Origin: Bdellovibrionales bacterium | GTDB taxonomy: Bacteria; Pseudomonadota; Alphaproteobacteria; JAIXQD01 | Assembly (NCBI GenBank): GCA_050248995.1 | Contig: JBFWRI010000003.1 | Coordinates: 28,619-92,618, forward strand | Direction of reading: 5' to 3' | Length of the DNA: 64,000 bases | Shown: one piece after another, positions 7,631 to 35,666 of the stretch | Numbering within the stretch: position 1 is the first letter of the stretch | How the letters are laid out: each line of letters begins with the position of its first letter | Notes under the pieces: generated by a model | Databases searched by the model: none | Told to the model about the DNA's origin: nothing | Seen by the model: only the letters and a program-made list of their open reading frames with translations | Translations under genes and position numbers: made by a program

Positions 7631-8659
7631 ATGATCCCCGATACGCCCAAAATTCTATTTTGCCTGACCGACGCTACCACCAAGGACGGGTTGCACTTTG
7701 AAGCCATGAACACGGCGTTGGCGGCGAAGGGCTTTATTTTTGCCGGCGAAGGCACAACCACCACCGGCAAGGTGCTGTTGGTCTACTTCACGTACGAAAT
7801 CGCGCCGAAGGAAAACATATTCAGCCGGCGCTATCATCTGCATGCGGCATTGCTCCCCCTCAAGCGCGCGCAAACGCTGGCGGCCGACGGCAGCGCTTTC
7901 GCGGCACTTGTCAGCAAGGCCAAACAGGGCGACCGCGACCTGAGACTGCGGCCCGGCGACGAATTTATTGCCGACCTCTCCAGCAACCGCGCGCGCTCGT
8001 CTGTCTGGGTTATCCGGCGCAACGGGCAGAAGCTGTTACGCAAGGCCTTCAATGCCGGCAGCATAGCATTTGTCGAACGCGAAGTTCTGGCCCGCAGCAT
8101 CATCAAGGATACACGCATGGCACCTATCGTCTTGCGCGAGGGGAATGTGCTGTACATGCCATTCTACCAGACAGGCTATGTCTGGCGCGAGGGCCTGCTG
8201 AACTTTTACCCGCGCCCGAAAGCCGCGCAGATCTTTGATTTTCTCGGCGCGATCAACCGCCAGGGCTATTCAATGATCGATATCAACCCCTCAGCCTTTC
8301 TGTGGGATGAAACTGGCGCTTTAAGGGTCGTTGACTTTGAGTTCTTCACGCAAACCCGCGTTGCCGACGATCTGAGAAAAAGCGTCGATTTCATCGGCGA
8401 TGTCGGCCACCTGCCAGCGCCGGCCAAAAATGGTTACAAACGCTACTGGTATGACCCGCTGGGCGGGCCATGGCCCCGTATTATGGAATATAACAAGGGC
8501 ACACGGCTTGTTGTTAAAGCCCTGCACCTGCTGTTTTACCGTTTGCCAAGGCGCGCGGCCAAGACTCTGGATCGCGCCCGCAAATCGGCGCTTACTTATC
8601 TCGCTGCTGCACGCGACCTGAAAGCGGGCGGGCTAAAAGACGGGTACTTTAATATATGA
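7631..8659 (+). CDS. hypothetical protein with atypical protein-kinase-like (Kdo/RIO-kinase-like) fold
   Basis: 342 aa. Segment SMIDINPSAFLWDETGALRVVDFEF resembles the catalytic loop plus the DFx metal-binding motif of Kdo/RIO-type kinases, with the catalytic His replaced by Met. ATGA overlap with the next gene. Confidence 0.55.
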   Translation: MIPDTPKILFCLTDATTKDGLHFEAMNTALAAKGFIFAGEGTTTTGKVLLVYFTYEIAPKENIFSRRYHLHAALLPLKRAQTLAADGSAFAALVSKAKQGDRDLRLRPGDEFIADLSSNRARSSVWVIRRNGQKLLRKAFNAGSIAFVEREVLARSIIKDTRMAPIVLREGNVLYMPFYQTGYVWREGLLNFYPRPKAAQIFDFLGAINRQGYSMIDINPSAFLWDETGALRVVDFEFFTQTRVADDLRKSVDFIGDVGHLPAPAKNGYKRYWYDPLGGPWPRIMEYNKGTRLVVKALHLLFYRLPRRAAKTLDRARKSALTYLAAARDLKAGGLKDGYFNI

Positions 8660-12783: not shown

Positions 12784-14509
12784 CTTCTCCTGTCTTGGCG
12801 ACAAGCGCCGGCTTACCAATACTGGGCACAACGCCCTGCTTCATCCAGATTACTTTGTCGGCCAGTTGCAGCCAGTTGTTATGGTGGGTAACGAAGATGA
12901 CCGTGCGTTTGCCGCGACATTCATGCAGGAAGTGTCGGAAGTGCGCGCCAGCGTTACTGTTCAATACATGACCCGGCAACTCGTCACATAACACGATCGG
13001 ACGCGCGGCCAGGTAAAGGCGTGCTAGATTTAAGCGGGCGGCCAATGTGTCTGACAATGCGGTGCCCTCTGCTCCCAGCTGCGCATGGATGCCCTGTGGC
13101 AACGCTTCGACAGCGTCCCATGCATCAGCGCGCTGCAGGGCGTCGCGGATATCGGCTTCACTAGCTGCGGCGTTCACCATGCGCAGGTTTTCTGCCAGCG
13201 TTCCGGGCAGGAACTCCGGCTCCTGCGACAGATAGGCAATCTGGCGCCGCAATACGCGGGGATCCAGCTGTCGATGATCTATGCCGTCAAAGCGTACTGT
13301 GCCCATGCCCGGCGTATTCAAGCCCAACAGCAGCCGCACAAGGCTCGACTTGCCGCTGCCATTGCTGCCATAGATGGCCACGATGTCGCCTTTGTTGATG
13401 CGGGCGTTCAGCCCCCAGAATATCGGGTCGGCCCCGGGTGCATAACGCAGCGACACATTCTGAAGCTCGATACCGCCGTGCAGGCGCGCGAAGCCGGGCG
13501 CCGTCGTATGTGCATGACGCTCGGGTGTCAGTGCCATCACCTGCAACACCTGCTGCAACGCCTGACGCACCTGCCCGAAGTGCGGGACAAGGGCACAAAT
13601 CGCCTGCAGCGGATACAGCAGGCGCCAGGTAATGATCATCGTTGCTACCATGGCACCGCCCGTCATTGTGCCACTCCATACACAGTGCAGTGACCAGTTG
13701 ATGATGACAACGCCCGCCACCACCGACAGCAGTGCCGATATATATTGCACGGCTGTTGCCAGCAGATTGTGCCGGCACTGGAGCTGCGTTGCCCGTCGGC
13801 TGATGCTCCGATAACGCTGGACTACCGTATCGGCCATACCAGCCGCATAAATCATCTTCATGTTGTCGATACTTTCCATCAACAGCAATTGCCGCTCAGC
13901 CGCAGCCTGAGTCATCTCGCGTCCCATGCGCTGCCATGTCCCTGCCAGCATCACCAGCAGCAAGCCATAAATGGCCAGCACGCCAAGGCCGACCAGCGCC
14001 ACTGGCCCGGCCAGCAGCCCCAGTACCAATACAAGTATCCCCATATAAGGCACTTCCAAAAGCGTCAGGAACATAGGCCCCGTCAAAAAGTCACGCACGG
14101 ATTCAAACGCGCCGGCGCGGGCCATCTGCGCCGCGACCGGGGCGCGCGCACCTAAGGAAGCAGGCACGAAAAGCAGCCGCCTGAACAATGACTGCCCCAC
14201 ATCACGGTCAAGCCGGACACCCAGCCATGCCACCAGCCGCGAACGTACGGCACGGAGCATGAATTCGGTTAGGAATGCGCACGCCATGCCTGCCACCAGC
14301 ATCGGCAGTGTATCCAGGGCCTGCACGCCAATCACGCGGTCATACACGATCATGCAAAAGACGGGTACGGCCAGCATGAATATATGAACGCCGAGGCTTA
14401 GCAACATCACCGGCATCAGTAGTGGTCGGCAGCGCTCTAGCGTCATGCGCCACCATGTGTCGGCTGCCTGCGGCGGCGACTCAGTTGGTACGACGACTGC
14501 CGCTGTCAC
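12758..14509 (-). CDS. type I secretion ABC transporter half-transporter B (TMD-NBD, no C39 peptidase domain); degenerate signature motif
   Basis: 583 aa. N-terminal 6-TM exporter domain with YDRV motif. Walker A GSNGSGKSS, Walker B IVLCDELPG and H-loop VTHH are intact. The signature position reads ALSDTLAARLNLARL instead of LSGGQRQRIAIAR. Confidence 0.85.
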   Translation of the reverse strand: MTAAVVVPTESPPQAADTWWRMTLERCRPLLMPVMLLSLGVHIFMLAVPVFCMIVYDRVIGVQALDTLPMLVAGMACAFLTEFMLRAVRSRLVAWLGVRLDRDVGQSLFRRLLFVPASLGARAPVAAQMARAGAFESVRDFLTGPMFLTLLEVPYMGILVLVLGLLAGPVALVGLGVLAIYGLLLVMLAGTWQRMGREMTQAAAERQLLLMESIDNMKMIYAAGMADTVVQRYRSISRRATQLQCRHNLLATAVQYISALLSVVAGVVIINWSLHCVWSGTMTGGAMVATMIITWRLLYPLQAICALVPHFGQVRQALQQVLQVMALTPERHAHTTAPGFARLHGGIELQNVSLRYAPGADPIFWGLNARINKGDIVAIYGSNGSGKSSLVRLLLGLNTPGMGTVRFDGIDHRQLDPRVLRRQIAYLSQEPEFLPGTLAENLRMVNAAASEADIRDALQRADAWDAVEALPQGIHAQLGAEGTALSDTLAARLNLARLYLAARPIVLCDELPGHVLNSNAGAHFRHFLHECRGKRTVIFVTHHNNWLQLADKVIWMKQGVVPSIGKPALVAKTGEEHASCHTS

Positions 14510-16230
14510 CGGGCCACCCCATAGCGCAGAGCCGGCTGCGCAACCACACCTGCGTGACGCACAGTCAGCACGCCATGCCGCAGCTCGTAAATACGGTCGG
14601 CCAGCCCGAGGATGTTTTGATCCTCAGTCACCAACACCAGTGTCACGTTGCGCCTAAGACGCATCAGCATACTGAAAACCGAAGCGTAACTGGATCTGTC
14701 CAGCCCCTGGCCGGCATTATCAAACAACCCAGCGCGCGGGCGCTGCAGCAAAACACGCGCGATAGCAATGCGTTGTTTGAGGCCGGGCGATACCGCGTCA
14801 CTAATAGTGTTGTCCAACTGCGTTTCGTACCCGGCCGGCAGCAGCGCCACAGCCGATTCAATACCCAGCGCCGTTGCCAGTAGGCGCACATCAGCGGGTG
14901 GACGATCCTGGAAACCCGTGATGTTGTCCATGATTGTGCCACGCAGGATCAGTCCGCGTGTCGGCAGATAACCGATTGCCTGCGCACGCGCCGTATCAGT
15001 TAGCTGCGATGCATCAACGCCCCCCAGAAGCACGCGTCCGCTGTCGGGCGCATAAAGCCCTGCCATCAGTTCCAGCAGGGCTGTCTTGCCGCACCCGGCC
15101 GGGCCTGTGATAGCAATAGCCTCGCCCGGCATTACCGTCAGCGAAAGCTTGTCAATAACAGGGCTGCAGGCGCCAAACGACAGTTGCGCCTGTTGCAGTT
15201 TCAGCGGCACCGGACCCAGTATCGCGCCGGGCTCAACCCGCCGCGTTTCAAGTTTCATAATCGTGGCAAGCCGCTGGGCCGCCACGTTGATGTCCTGCCA
15301 GCGCAACCACAGGCCAGCTCCGCGCTGAACGTGCTGCAGGATCTGACCCGACAGCATTATCCCAGCCGCCAGCATACCGCCTGTGATCATGCCCTTTACC
15401 GCCAGTACCGCACCAACCCCCATTAACGCCGTTACCATGATCTGGGCGCCCAGATAGCCAAACGTGCCCGACGCGCTTTGCAAACAGGCCAACCGGTAAA
15501 GAACGGGCGCCCCTGCACGCTGCAAGTCATCGTAGCGTTGTGCTACGTCGCTTTCCCAGCACATAGCCTTGATGGTAGGCAGCGCCTGCAAAGCCTGGCT
15601 GGCGAATGTGTGCCGCCTGTCATCATGACGCTCGCGCGCGGCGGTCAGGTCACGCAGAGCACGGCCGTGGCGAACAAACATAAGTATGGCGATGGCAATA
15701 CCGCCGACCGTTACAAAGACCAGAGGGCCGGTCAGGTAGAATGTCAGCACCAGAAACAGGACAGCGAAAGGTATATCGACCAGCAGTGTCGCCGTCATCT
15801 GGCCTCCATAGTATTCTTTGAGACGCTGGACGGCGTTGATATCCTGCACGCGCACAGTGGTTGTCTTGCTGGCCTGGCGACGCGGCTCGATTGCAAGCAG
15901 ATGCGCCAGCGCGGCCGACGACATCGTTTCATCGAACCTAGCGGCCGTTCTGGACGTTACCGTCTGGCGCAACAGACGCAACAGACACTCGGCCAGCGCG
16001 GCAACCAGCACACCCGCGGACAAGATTAGCAGCGTATCGGCGGCACGGCTAATCATCACACGGTCATAAATCTGAATTGTCATCAGCGGCAGCGCCAGGG
16101 CCAGCAGGTTGATGGCAACCGATGATCCCATAACCAGCGCAGCGTGTGGCGTGCGAAGCATCAGGCGGTACGATGACGGGATAAGAGACACCAGATAAAC
16201 CTCAAGTTGTATATGTTGATGACCGTACAA
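14506..16230 (-). CDS. type I secretion ABC transporter half-transporter A (TMD-NBD, no C39 domain); degenerate Walker B/H-loop
   Basis: 574 aa. Walker A GPAGCGKTA. Near-consensus signature VSPGLKQRIAIARVLL. Walker B position GLFDNAG (catalytic Glu -> Asn). H-loop position VTED (His -> Glu). 4-nt overlap with the downstream ABC gene. Start uncertain: TTG at 16230 or ATG at 16161. Confidence 0.8.
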   Translation of the reverse strand: MYGHQHIQLEVYLVSLIPSSYRLMLRTPHAALVMGSSVAINLLALALPLMTIQIYDRVMISRAADTLLILSAGVLVAALAECLLRLLRQTVTSRTAARFDETMSSAALAHLLAIEPRRQASKTTTVRVQDINAVQRLKEYYGGQMTATLLVDIPFAVLFLVLTFYLTGPLVFVTVGGIAIAILMFVRHGRALRDLTAARERHDDRRHTFASQALQALPTIKAMCWESDVAQRYDDLQRAGAPVLYRLACLQSASGTFGYLGAQIMVTALMGVGAVLAVKGMITGGMLAAGIMLSGQILQHVQRGAGLWLRWQDINVAAQRLATIMKLETRRVEPGAILGPVPLKLQQAQLSFGACSPVIDKLSLTVMPGEAIAITGPAGCGKTALLELMAGLYAPDSGRVLLGGVDASQLTDTARAQAIGYLPTRGLILRGTIMDNITGFQDRPPADVRLLATALGIESAVALLPAGYETQLDNTISDAVSPGLKQRIAIARVLLQRPRAGLFDNAGQGLDRSSYASVFSMLMRLRRNVTLVLVTEDQNILGLADRIYELRHGVLTVRHAGVVAQPALRYGVAR

Positions 16231-33654: not shown

Positions 33655-34536
33655 CTAACTTATAAACATTCCACAAGAAGCCATCACGTCGAACCCGACG
33701 CGCGGCACAATGCGGCTTTCTTCGCTTCCCAACCCATCCTTCAGGATTTTGAAGTTGCGTTCAATCACATCCTCGTCCGGTTCGCGGCCCTGTTTTTCGG
33801 AATACGGGTTATAGCGCACAAGGTTGAACTTGGCGCGTAGCCCGTGCGCGCGCACGGCGCCGACGATGTTTTTTACGTTTGCTTCGCTGTCGTTCTCGCC
33901 TTCAATAAACGCGCCGTGAATAACCGCGTGCTGCTTCACACCCTTTTGCCAATCGGCAATCTTCTGCAGCGCCGCATGCGGCTCCATTGCCTTCGGCAGC
34001 CAGCGGCGGCGGAAATCGTCATCCAGTGAATACAGCGAGTAATAGATGAACACATCCGGCTTGTCGCCGAACACATCGGCCAGATCCACGCTTTCCAATC
34101 CCTTTGGCATAATCGTGGAAATATTGAACTTGGCTTTCAGCCCCTGCGCGGCAGCAAGCTCTTTCAGGCCGTTATAAATCGTATCGAAGTCTTTCAGCAT
34201 GTGCGGGTTGGCCAGCGGCTCGCCCCGCGCCATCCAGTTGAAGTTCACGCGCTGCGCCTTTCCTTCAGAACGCTTTACGCCGGCATAGTAATTCAGCACG
34301 TCGCGACCCTGCGCGATAATCTCGCCCGGCGTCAGGTCGACATACTTTGTCTGGCCGGTCTGCGTTAGAAAACAAAAGCGACACGCACGGTTGCAGCCGG
34401 TTTGTGATGAAAGATAGGCGATGAAGTAATCGTCGCTGCGGCGCACATAACGCACCTCGACCTTGCCAACTGTATCGTGCTCTGAAATCCAGTTTACCGA
34501 GCGGTCCTGCTCGGAGAATAATATTTGTGTTTTCAT
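33655..34536 (-). CDS. RlmN/Cfr-family radical SAM protein lacking the N-terminal domain
   Basis: 294 aa from MKTQILFSEQ (SD GGGAGA). CxxxCxxC motif SSQTGCNRACRFC. Collinear with RlmN through the MGEPL, STSG, NL(V/I)xxNP and C-terminal DVMASCGMF (RlmN DIDAACGQL) segments. The position of RlmN Cys118 is Tyr. Confidence 0.75.
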   Translation of the reverse strand: MKTQILFSEQDRSVNWISEHDTVGKVEVRYVRRSDDYFIAYLSSQTGCNRACRFCFLTQTGQTKYVDLTPGEIIAQGRDVLNYYAGVKRSEGKAQRVNFNWMARGEPLANPHMLKDFDTIYNGLKELAAAQGLKAKFNISTIMPKGLESVDLADVFGDKPDVFIYYSLYSLDDDFRRRWLPKAMEPHAALQKIADWQKGVKQHAVIHGAFIEGENDSEANVKNIVGAVRAHGLRAKFNLVRYNPYSEKQGREPDEDVIERNFKILKDGLGSEESRIVPRVGFDVMASCGMFIS

Positions 34537-34721
34537 GAAATCTCCCGTGAGTGAAGTACCTACGGGAAACCAGAAGAACGTTGATTCCGGAAACTGCCTA
34601 GACATCAAACCCTATGGGCTTGGGGCGTGAAAACACCATATATAGGTGAAACACTACATCTTGTTTTTCACAAAGTTTTCCCCACTAGGGAAACATGCCG
34701 TGAAACAAAAGTAATTGTGGA

Positions 34722-35666
34722 TTAAGCTCCCATCAGTGCTTTGGCAAAGCTTTCGGCGTCAAACGCCTGCAGGTCTTCAATGCCTTCGCCGACGCCCAGC
34801 GCCACGATGGGCAGCTTGTGTTGTGTGGCCAGCGCCACCACCATGCCGCCCTTGGCGGTACCATCCAGTTTCGTCACGACAAGGCCCGATACATTCACCA
34901 TCTCGCGGAACACCTGAGTCTGGCTCAGCGCGTTCTGGCCCGTGGTGGCATCCAGCACCAGCAGCGTGGCATGCGGCGCCGTGGCATCCACTTTCTGGAT
35001 TGCGCGCACAACCTTTTTCAGCTCTTCCATCAGCTCGGCCTTATTCTGCAACCGCCCGGCGGTATCGATCAGCAGCACATCGGCGGCCTCGCGCTGCGCG
35101 CGCTCGACAGCTTCAAACGCAAGGCCAGCCGCATCGGCGCCGGTTTCGCGCGATATCACCGGCACGCCGGCACGGGCGCCCCATGTTTGCAACTGCTCCA
35201 CGGCTGCCGCGCGGAAGGTATCGCCCGCTGCCAGCATCACATTCTTACCGGCCTGCTTGAATTGCGCGGCCAGCTTACCCAGCGTTGTGGTTTTGCCGCT
35301 GCCGTTCACGCCCACCATCAGAATAACGAATGGCTTGTGTGTTTCAACGTTCAGTGGCTGCGCCACAGGCTGCAGGCGCGCGGCAATGTCAGTGGCCAGA
35401 AATGCACGCACTTCGGCATCATCGACATCCTGGCCAAAACGCTGCTTGCCGAACGCGGCGGTGATTTCAGCTGCCAGCGCGGGGCCCAGATCGGCCGTGA
35501 TTAAAATTTCTTCCAGTTCTTCCAGCGCAGCATCATCCAGCCGGCGCTTGGTGAAGGTATCGGTGATGGATGTGCTGATTTTATCGGCTGACTTCGACAA
35601 GCCCTCGCCCAGCCGCACCAACCACGACTTCTCTTCGGGCTTGTCTTTCTTGAACAGGCCTAGCAT
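34722..35666 (-). CDS. ftsY: signal recognition particle receptor FtsY (short form, NG domain only)
   Basis: PFVILMVGVNGSGKTTTLGKLA, DTAGRLQNK, TKLDGTAKGG motifs. 314 aa. Confidence 0.93.
   Translation of the reverse strand: MLGLFKKDKPEEKSWLVRLGEGLSKSADKISTSITDTFTKRRLDDAALEELEEILITADLGPALAAEITAAFGKQRFGQDVDDAEVRAFLATDIAARLQPVAQPLNVETHKPFVILMVGVNGSGKTTTLGKLAAQFKQAGKNVMLAAGDTFRAAAVEQLQTWGARAGVPVISRETGADAAGLAFEAVERAQREAADVLLIDTAGRLQNKAELMEELKKVVRAIQKVDATAPHATLLVLDATTGQNALSQTQVFREMVNVSGLVVTKLDGTAKGGMVVALATQHKLPIVALGVGEGIEDLQAFDAESFAKALMGA

Follow-up and report, generated by a model that had tools for sequence, protein, structure and literature searches.

The 64-kb window analyzed here, that is, the whole 64,000-nucleotide stretch of contig JBFWRI010000003.1 under study, contains on its minus strand (positions 33655 to 34536) a complete open reading frame (ORF) of 293 codons plus a stop codon. 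The ORF call, the translation, homology, and an AlphaFold2 (AF2) model identify the product as a minimal relative of the radical S-adenosylmethionine (SAM) enzymes RlmN and Cfr. The order of genes on this strand is mtaB (35660-36919), ftsY (34722-35666), a 185-nt gap, and the radical SAM gene, with amn converging 4 nt past its stop codon; coordinates and gene order agree with the preliminary description, which had located the gene downstream of mtaB-ftsY after a gap of that length. The product is interpreted as a functional single-domain radical SAM enzyme of ∼33 kDa, a claim that forms part of a joint reading of the gene, its family, and its chemistry to which we give, as a whole, a probability of about one half.

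Gene boundaries and catalytic residues

Translation would begin at the ATG at 34534-34536, preceded at a distance of 4 nt by a Shine-Dalgarno-like GGGAGA read from the sequence (34541-34546, minus strand). The sole longer reading, from a TTG at 34608 (72 nt further upstream), adds 24 residues without homology, and in the family alignment the homologs begin at the same residue as Met1 of the query. The preliminary description had considered that the true start might lie further upstream and restore the N-terminal domain of RlmN. No such start was found and the possibility is ruled out: there is an in-frame stop upstream, and because the ftsY stop codon lies just 185 nt (34537-34721) before the ATG, the domain cannot be regained.

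The query was aligned with five family members, RlmN of Escherichia coli and Sinorhizobium meliloti, and Cfr of Staphylococcus aureus by using MAFFT. Met1 of the query corresponds to Arg78 of E. coli RlmN, and from there to the C-terminal loop with the methyl-carrying cysteine the query is collinear with RlmN and Cfr. What is absent is the N-terminal ∼77 residues of E. coli RlmN (64 relative to Cfr), which amount to the entire HhH2 RNA-binding domain. The loss of the N-terminal accessory domain was thus correctly recognized at the outset, although the start lies ∼77 rather than ∼100 residues later than that of RlmN, as had been estimated.

The query protein possesses exactly four cysteines. 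Three of them, Cys48, Cys52, and Cys55, form the CxxxCxxC motif within GCNRACRFC (34372-34395, minus strand), which aligns with C125, C129, and C132 of RlmN; from the alignment and the model, they are predicted to bind a [4Fe-4S] cluster and SAM. The fourth, Cys288 (codon 33673-33675, minus strand), lies in the C-terminal loop VGFDVMASCGMF (residues 280 to 291; 33664-33699, minus strand) and corresponds to the methyl-carrying Cys355 of RlmN and Cys338 of Cfr, in line with the collinearity and the cysteine assignment within DVMASCGMF that had been proposed. Glu27 (codon 34456-34458, minus strand) corresponds to Glu105 of RlmN and Glu91 of Cfr. Conversely, the position of the resolving cysteine, Cys118 of RlmN and Cys105 of Cfr, is occupied by Tyr41 (codon 34414-34416, minus strand). 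The preliminary description had read a tyrosine here, within IAYLSSQ, and had named a conserved cysteine in a proper alignment as the result that would speak against its view; the alignment gives tyrosine, both in the query and in all 272 aligned members of the family.

RlmN, the near-universal bacterial methyltransferase that forms m2A2503 in 23S rRNA and m2A37 in tRNA, and Cfr, a clinically important antibiotic resistance enzyme, are to our knowledge the sole class A radical SAM methylases that have been characterized; their ping-pong mechanism, which uses two cysteines, is a textbook example. The class is defined by two conserved cysteines (PMC9692996). In RlmN, C355 carries the methyl group, and C118 takes the C2 proton and thereby resolves the covalent enzyme-RNA adduct; the C118A and C105A variants remain cross-linked to RNA (PMC9692996; PMC13001441), and the E91A and C105A variants of Cfr are inactive (PMC2836569). 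Since Cys288 aligns with C355 and Tyr41 with C118, the query is predicted to retain the SAM-to-cysteine half of the RlmN machinery while being devoid of the canonical resolving residue.

The remainder of the active site follows the same division. Among the 49 most conserved positions of the family, 25 have the same residue in E. coli RlmN or Cfr, and 24 have it in both (S140 of the query matches S213 of RlmN alone, not Cfr). In RlmN numbering, the shared positions include E105, S120, Q151, G179, E180, N184, S233, R242, N286, D287, N307, N312, G348, D350, A353, C355, and G356. The residues of the SAM site are thereby kept, namely, the GEP motif, the Ser of the S-L-H/S-L-Y motif, N-D, NxxxxN-P, and Glu27. 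Family-specific replacements relative to RlmN are C118 to Tyr41, H235 to Tyr169, E278 to His207, and M178 to Arg104, together with tyrosines at positions 37, 165, and 166. The residues by which Cfr holds the A2503 U-turn (W101, S103, S151, S153, S187, Y252, and others) are not conserved in the query family; however, this mapping is uninformative because these positions differ even between Cfr and RlmN. Overall identity to RlmN and Cfr is 23%, compared with 40 to 71% within the family.

Conservation of the family and its separation from RlmN and Cfr

A search of 5.8 billion proteins yielded 2,844 matches, the top 120 of which are all ∼290 to 300 amino acids (aa) long and 49 to 71% identical to the query. 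When 1.84 billion cluster representatives were searched with a profile, 422 were returned at E values of ≤1e-30 and just 2,809 at ≤1e-3; the family size of ∼422 clusters used here therefore refers to clustering at 50% identity and an E value of ≤1e-30. Given that RlmN is nearly universal in bacteria, so low a total implies that most canonical RlmN clusters probably fall below significance in this search and that the family is well separated from them.

Conservation within the family is strong. In an alignment of 275 sequences, Tyr41 is present without exception, the cluster cysteines in 270 of 270, Cys288 and Glu27 in 271 of 275 each, and His207 in 272; Tyr41, Cys288, and His207 are likewise invariant in all 152 copies derived from the examined loci, viral and cellular. 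Forty-four positions are ≥95% identical across the 275 sequences, and the mean column identity over 27 sequences is 57%, which is read as family-wide purifying selection. No second conserved cysteine column was found in the 275-member alignment, the most cysteine-rich other column being position 40 (19%). This position (codon 34417-34419 in the query) adjoins Tyr41 and holds V, C, or A; if it lies on a β-strand, its side chain is predicted, without a structure, to face away from the active site. The family would thus comprise class A-like radical SAM enzymes that fail one defining feature of the class, the second cysteine. As part of the joint reading, for which the odds are about even, the family forms its own strongly conserved clade, an offshoot of the RlmN/Cfr class A lineage.

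These data also bear on the idea that the gene is a functionless, decaying remnant of an RlmN-like gene. The absence of one domain and one catalytic residue relative to RlmN would be expected of a pseudogene, but the ORF is intact and has a good ribosome-binding site, its GC content at third codon positions (GC3) of 0.67 lies within the host range, the AF2 model is confident, and the 44 near-invariant positions refute the idea for all practical purposes.

Profile comparisons locate the protein outside the known groups. The only Pfam domain matched is PF04055 (Radical_SAM; 31.5 bits versus a cutoff of 29.5). Scores against RlmN and Cfr models are 4- to 10-fold below the curated cutoffs, none of which is reached: 66 bits versus 290 for RlmN model TIGR00048 (E value of 2.9e-18; model positions 77 to 340 of 355), 48.9 versus 633 for PRK11194 (RlmN), and 52.2 versus 550, 55 versus 530, and 50.2 versus 468 for the Cfr models TIGR04432, NF000424, and PRK14453, respectively. 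The best sequence matches in the Protein Data Bank (PDB) are Cfr 9p0p (E value of 1e-9) and RlmN 3rf9, 4pl1, and 5hr6 (E value of ∼1e-8). The AF2 model (mean predicted local distance difference test [pLDDT] of 90.6) matches radical SAM structures; toward its C-terminal end, the mean pLDDT is 62 in block 281-290, and the last five residues (289 to 293) lie at <50.

Compared with RlmN (E. coli YfgB; TIGR00048; PDB 3RF9, 3RFA, and 5HR7), the query model (Foldseek template modeling [TM] score of 0.73) shares the radical SAM core, the β-sheet extension, and the C-terminal loop over RlmN residues 78 to 358, along with CxxxCxxC, Glu105, GEP, N286-D287, N307, N312, and the G-x-D-x-x-A-x-C-G loop carrying Cys355. 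It differs in lacking residues 1 to 77 (HhH2) and a segment of the α1/β2 loop, in a 6-residue insertion after GEPLAN, and in the replacement of Cys118 and His235 by Tyr and of Glu278 by His; furthermore, the query family is accessory, phage-borne, and sporadic, whereas RlmN is universal. Cfr, the 23S m8A2503 methyltransferase (TIGR04432/NF000424; PDB 9P0P), likewise differs in its N-terminal domain, missing in the query, and in Cys105, replaced by Tyr, and there is no reason to expect the query protein to confer resistance to phenicols, lincosamides, oxazolidinones, pleuromutilins, and streptogramin A (PhLOPSA). A radical SAM methyltransferase of Sphaerobacter thermophilus (PDB 6FZ6, annotated as probable RlmN) is 20% identical; with 340 to 366 residues, it possesses the N-terminal region, and residues 40 to 290 of the query align with 121 to 355 of its chain. 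The closest likeness is to the phage protein family PHROG 27142 ("Fe-S-cluster redox domain-containing"), which residues 8 to 292 of the query match over profile positions 11 to 299 of 300 (E value of 3.7e-109, 366 bits). This is the same family, with Tyr41 and Cys288 conserved, at 45 to 50% identity, and BFVD model B3FJU2, a member of it, matches the query model with a TM score of 0.91; those copies differ from the query, a solitary chromosomal gene, in being encoded by phages. The PHROG name is an old label derived from COG0820, and no member has a described function.

An ordinary rlmN with a miscalled start or a recent truncation, still methylating 23S A2503 and tRNA A37, would account for the fact that the best matches outside the family are RlmN and Cfr. 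It would also account for the automatic names of the homologs, "adenine C2-methylase RlmN" and "Cfr family," which are transfers from COG0820, RlmN, or Cfr. This explanation is very improbable and can be considered effectively refuted: the in-frame stop and ftsY exclude a longer protein, ∼275 homologs have the same length and start, the RlmN score is 66 bits instead of 290, the resolving cysteine is missing family-wide, the distribution is sporadic and phage-borne, and syntenic close relatives lack the gene at this site. A canonical rlmN was not found within the 64-kb window by tblastn, the matches being confined to generic radical SAM motifs in mtaB and in two further genes (weak matches at 8294-8356 and 14431-14592, plus strand, neither gene being RlmN-like). 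As judged from the family and the window, the gene is probably not a housekeeping rlmN; the view that it represents a distinct RlmN-like subfamily, put forward in the preliminary description, is sustained by the low scores, the 23% identity, and the sporadic spread on phages and other mobile DNA.

Neither NCBIfam nor Pfam has a curated model specific for the family, and full-text literature searches yielded no description of it. Informative domain fusions were not identified: a few members (P0122, P0173, P0197, and P0210) carry N-terminal extensions of 75 to 200 aa without a Pfam match that differ from one another and could be either substrate-targeting domains or miscalled starts.

Genomic context, phage carriage, and the AbiEii-linked module

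Two contigs of relatives, with FtsY proteins 77% and 70% identical to that of the window, share the gene order prfA-prmC-DUF4167-mtaB-ftsY-X-amn; the first continues with recA and a NUDIX gene, and the second stops at amn. Slot X, between ftsY and amn, is occupied on these contigs by a gene of 196 aa (locus of P0275) or 157 aa (L175, 7112-7585) that has no Pfam match and, by BLASTP, is unrelated to the radical SAM gene. Vertical inheritance at the locus is thus not borne out, given that close relatives lack the gene at this site. Among the loci examined, none of the other family members has ftsY, amn, or mtaB nearby, and the closest homolog (71% identical) is located between TauE and asparaginase genes. 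Because of the variability of the slot and the lack of such linkage elsewhere, the gene appears to be a lineage-specific accessory insertion. For the same reasons, its adjacency to mtaB-ftsY is regarded as coincidental; a functional link to mtaB, itself a radical SAM enzyme that modifies C2 of tRNA A37, was considered and dismissed because the synteny is kept in relatives without the gene. The composition of the gene (GC content of 0.54, GC3 of 0.67) falls inside the host range, so that recent horizontal transfer is unsupported by composition and the acquisition is probably not recent.

The gap between ftsY and the gene (34537-34721) is AT-richer, with a GC content of 0.475 in the 34400-34799 composition window that holds most of it. 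Four copies of the motif GTGAAA(A)(A)CA cluster in the gap within 81 nt (34627-34707), direct at 34627, 34646, and 34700 and inverted at 34662; elsewhere in the 64-kb window, counting either strand, the motif recurs just twice. At the start codon of the radical SAM gene, and overlapping it, is a related TGAAAACAC, so that the region concerned spans 34527-34707. The cluster may be an operator array; no such array was found upstream of homologs at other loci. On the minus strand of the gap, no σ70-like consensus promoter and no terminator were detected, and a riboswitch or other known RNA was rejected as an explanation of the 185-nt leader, with no Rfam family matched.

The metagenome-assembled genome (MAG) is labeled "Bdellovibrionales bacterium" in NCBI (protein records MGE3769657-60). 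Among named proteins, its FtsY in the window is closest to those of Azospirillum, Thalassospira, and Dongiaceae (64 to 68% identical), and the synteny prfA-prmC-DUF4167-mtaB-ftsY-X-amn-recA-NUDIX matches alphaproteobacterial contigs. By these sequence comparisons, the genome resembles a Rhodospirillales-like alphaproteobacterium, and the NCBI label looks wrong.

Outside this genome, the family is widely scattered. Jumbo phages of Pseudomonas (201phi2-1 [gp434], Phabio, Psa21, D6, RVTF4, and Viktualia) and of Caulobacter (CcrColossus [gp283] and CcrPW) carry it, as do eight Brevundimonas jumbo phages, under annotations ranging from "hypothetical protein" to "rRNA large subunit methyltransferase N." IMG/VR contributes 77 loci, many on contigs of 300 to 465 kb. 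Among 185,579 species genomes, 89 matches were confirmed, a lower bound since the scan depends on conserved peptide patterns. They come from Planctomycetota, Myxococcota, Saccharibacteria, a few Alpha- and Betaproteobacteria, Nocardia, and megaplasmids of Pseudomonas and Paracoccus, and PLSDB adds a Miltoncostaea plasmid, where the Prokaryotic Genome Annotation Pipeline (PGAP) calls the product a "hypothetical protein," and a Rhizobium replicon. On that plasmid (Miltoncostaea oceani, NZ_CP064357.1), a 3.9-kb ORF between nrdI and nrdF (L176, 1980-5858), ∼2 kb upstream of the family member, is annotated as a LAGLIDADG homing endonuclease and may be an intein-containing nrdE.

In a neighbor-joining tree, viral and cellular copies interleave, and the protein of the window falls among viral loci and copies from Roseivivax, Paracoccus, Acetobacter malorum, Acidiphilium, and Achromobacter. 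A prophage context of the chromosomal copies was rejected: in 12 cellular loci, the radical SAM gene is nearly the only sequence in common with viral loci, apart from one or two other weak matches in a few of them. On the basis of distribution and tree, the family appears to have spread mainly by phages and other mobile DNA.

The neighbors in viral genomes raise the question of a DNA substrate. In metagenomic T4-like phages, the gene overlaps the end of gp46 (Rad50-like) or sits between UvsX-like and UvsY-like genes, and in other viral loci it adjoins a gene for NAD-dependent DNA ligase. Such recombination and replication neighborhoods make DNA a serious rival target, with the enzyme, for example, placing a C-methyl group on a purine of phage DNA or undoing a DNA lesion instead of acting on RNA. 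We nevertheless consider this unlikely. The same phage regions are also general early-gene, hyperplastic regions; positional equivalence with the T4 a-gt and b-gt genes was examined and discarded, the T4 map showing the same modules only; the gene is present in nucleus-forming jumbo phages of the 201phi2-1 group, for which we know of no reported DNA base modification; and the solitary chromosomal copies are not accompanied by partner restriction or repair genes.

A second recurrent context is found in Planctomycetota and Myxococcota, where, in 38 loci, the gene adjoins a gene for an AbiEii-family nucleotidyltransferase (PF08843, E values down to 1e-25; PADLOC AbiEii, E values down to 1e-63), followed by one for a TIGR02996/leucine-rich repeat (LRR) protein. 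The first two genes are mostly divergent, but in L015 they are codirectional and 2 nt apart. Examples of the three-gene module, among loci L015 to L077, are L040 (3516-6876), L029 (3559-6891), and L015 (5869-9111), and the Planctomycetota MAG MFD02248.bin.2.136 carries two modules (L021 and L034).

AbiEii/MenT toxins nucleotidylate the acceptor ends of tRNA. The radical SAM protein could accordingly be the partner or antidote of such toxins in a toxin-antitoxin-like or defense module, with solitary and phage copies providing immunity or counterdefense, and might modify the tRNA target of the toxin, the toxin itself, or a nucleotide. This possibility, likewise a serious rival, is favored by several observations: the linkage persists even though the AbiEii proteins are just 29 to 78% identical, the flanking genes checked show no AbiEi antitoxin domain, the linked copies form a single clade in the neighbor-joining tree, one MAG maintains two modules, and carriage by phages and other mobile genetic elements is typical of conflict genes. 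It is unlikely, however, because linkage is confined to that one clade and no AbiEii homolog is present in the 64-kb window (tblastn) or in any viral locus. In addition, PADLOC finds in the radical SAM protein only a weak generic viperin-motif match (E value of 0.005), and the methyl-Cys loop argues for a nucleobase-type sp2 carbon as the target, which is compatible with tRNA.

Proposed mechanism, substrate, and significance

The preferred reading, with the probability of about one half given above, is that the protein, the product of an accessory gene, transfers a methyl group in the manner of RlmN, by way of methyl-Cys288, to a different nucleobase target and uses Tyr41 in place of the resolving cysteine. 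A first SAM would methylate Cys288, as suggested by the conservation of the C-terminal loop, and a second would be cleaved to a 5'-deoxyadenosyl radical that takes a hydrogen atom from methyl-Cys288. The resulting Cys-S-CH2 radical would then attack an sp2 carbon of the substrate. The target would be a nucleic acid or nucleotide other than 23S A2503 or tRNA A37, as argued from the loss of the HhH2 RNA-binding domain and from the differences at substrate-contact positions. Finally, the covalent adduct would be resolved by Tyr41 in the role of the general base Cys118; Tyr41 may act as a proton acceptor or a proton-coupled electron relay and may be assisted by other invariant residues specific to the family, for example, His207, the counterpart of Glu278 of RlmN in the alignment. 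An RNA target is weakly favored on account of the family's ancestry, its link to AbiEii, and the presence of the gene in nucleus-forming jumbo phages.

Several considerations weigh against this reading. Both the substrate and the methyl transfer are predicted here from sequence, and the proximity of Tyr41, His207, and Cys288 follows solely from the alignment with RlmN and Cfr. We know of no precedent for a tyrosine as the resolving base among class A methylases, the very group that is defined by two conserved cysteines (PMC9692996). The near-neutral isoelectric point of the family (median of 6.5) offers no argument for a large RNA-binding surface, and the rRNA contacts of Cfr, although not conserved, are uninformative for the reason given above. 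The DNA recombination and replication genes next to the phage copies fit a DNA target about equally well, and the AbiEii linkage could indicate a protein or nucleotide substrate.

The same features can be read in favor of an enzyme that is not a methyltransferase, in which Cys288 and Tyr41 relay a hydrogen atom or a radical for a different radical SAM reaction on a small molecule or nucleotide and the C-terminal loop is kept for another purpose. One of the two class-defining cysteines is lost, the invariant Y37, Y41, Y165, Y166, Y169, W179, and H207 replace core residues of RlmN and Cfr, and the protein is small, near neutral, and of a single domain. Spore photoproduct lyase, a radical SAM enzyme of DNA repair whose radical relay involves Cys and Tyr, provides a mechanistic analogy, but nothing beyond that, in that it acts on a nucleic acid and contains a conserved Cys and Tyr. 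On the other side stands the retention of the methyl-Cys loop, and we consider a non-methyltransferase quite improbable.

More speculatively, and with the odds well against it, the family could be a single-domain RlmN descendant engaged in phage-host conflict. The methyl-Cys/Tyr pair would install an undescribed C-methyl or methylene-derived mark on tRNA, other RNA, DNA, or a nucleotide; in the three-gene LRR module, the enzyme would be the partner of the AbiEii toxin, and phage, plasmid, and orphan copies would serve counterdefense or immunity.

Whatever the substrate, hundreds of clusters keep the methyl-Cys machinery yet swap the resolving cysteine for tyrosine and drop the RNA-binding domain. 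If tyrosine can perform the resolving step, the mechanistic rule for class A enzymes would be revised; otherwise, both the chemistry of the family and its substrate would be different. For a Y41F variant, covalent trapping of the substrate is predicted. Given its carriage by jumbo phages such as 201phi2-1, Phabio, and CcrColossus and its link to AbiEii in two phyla, the family may mark an unrecognized nucleic acid modification used in phage-host conflict.

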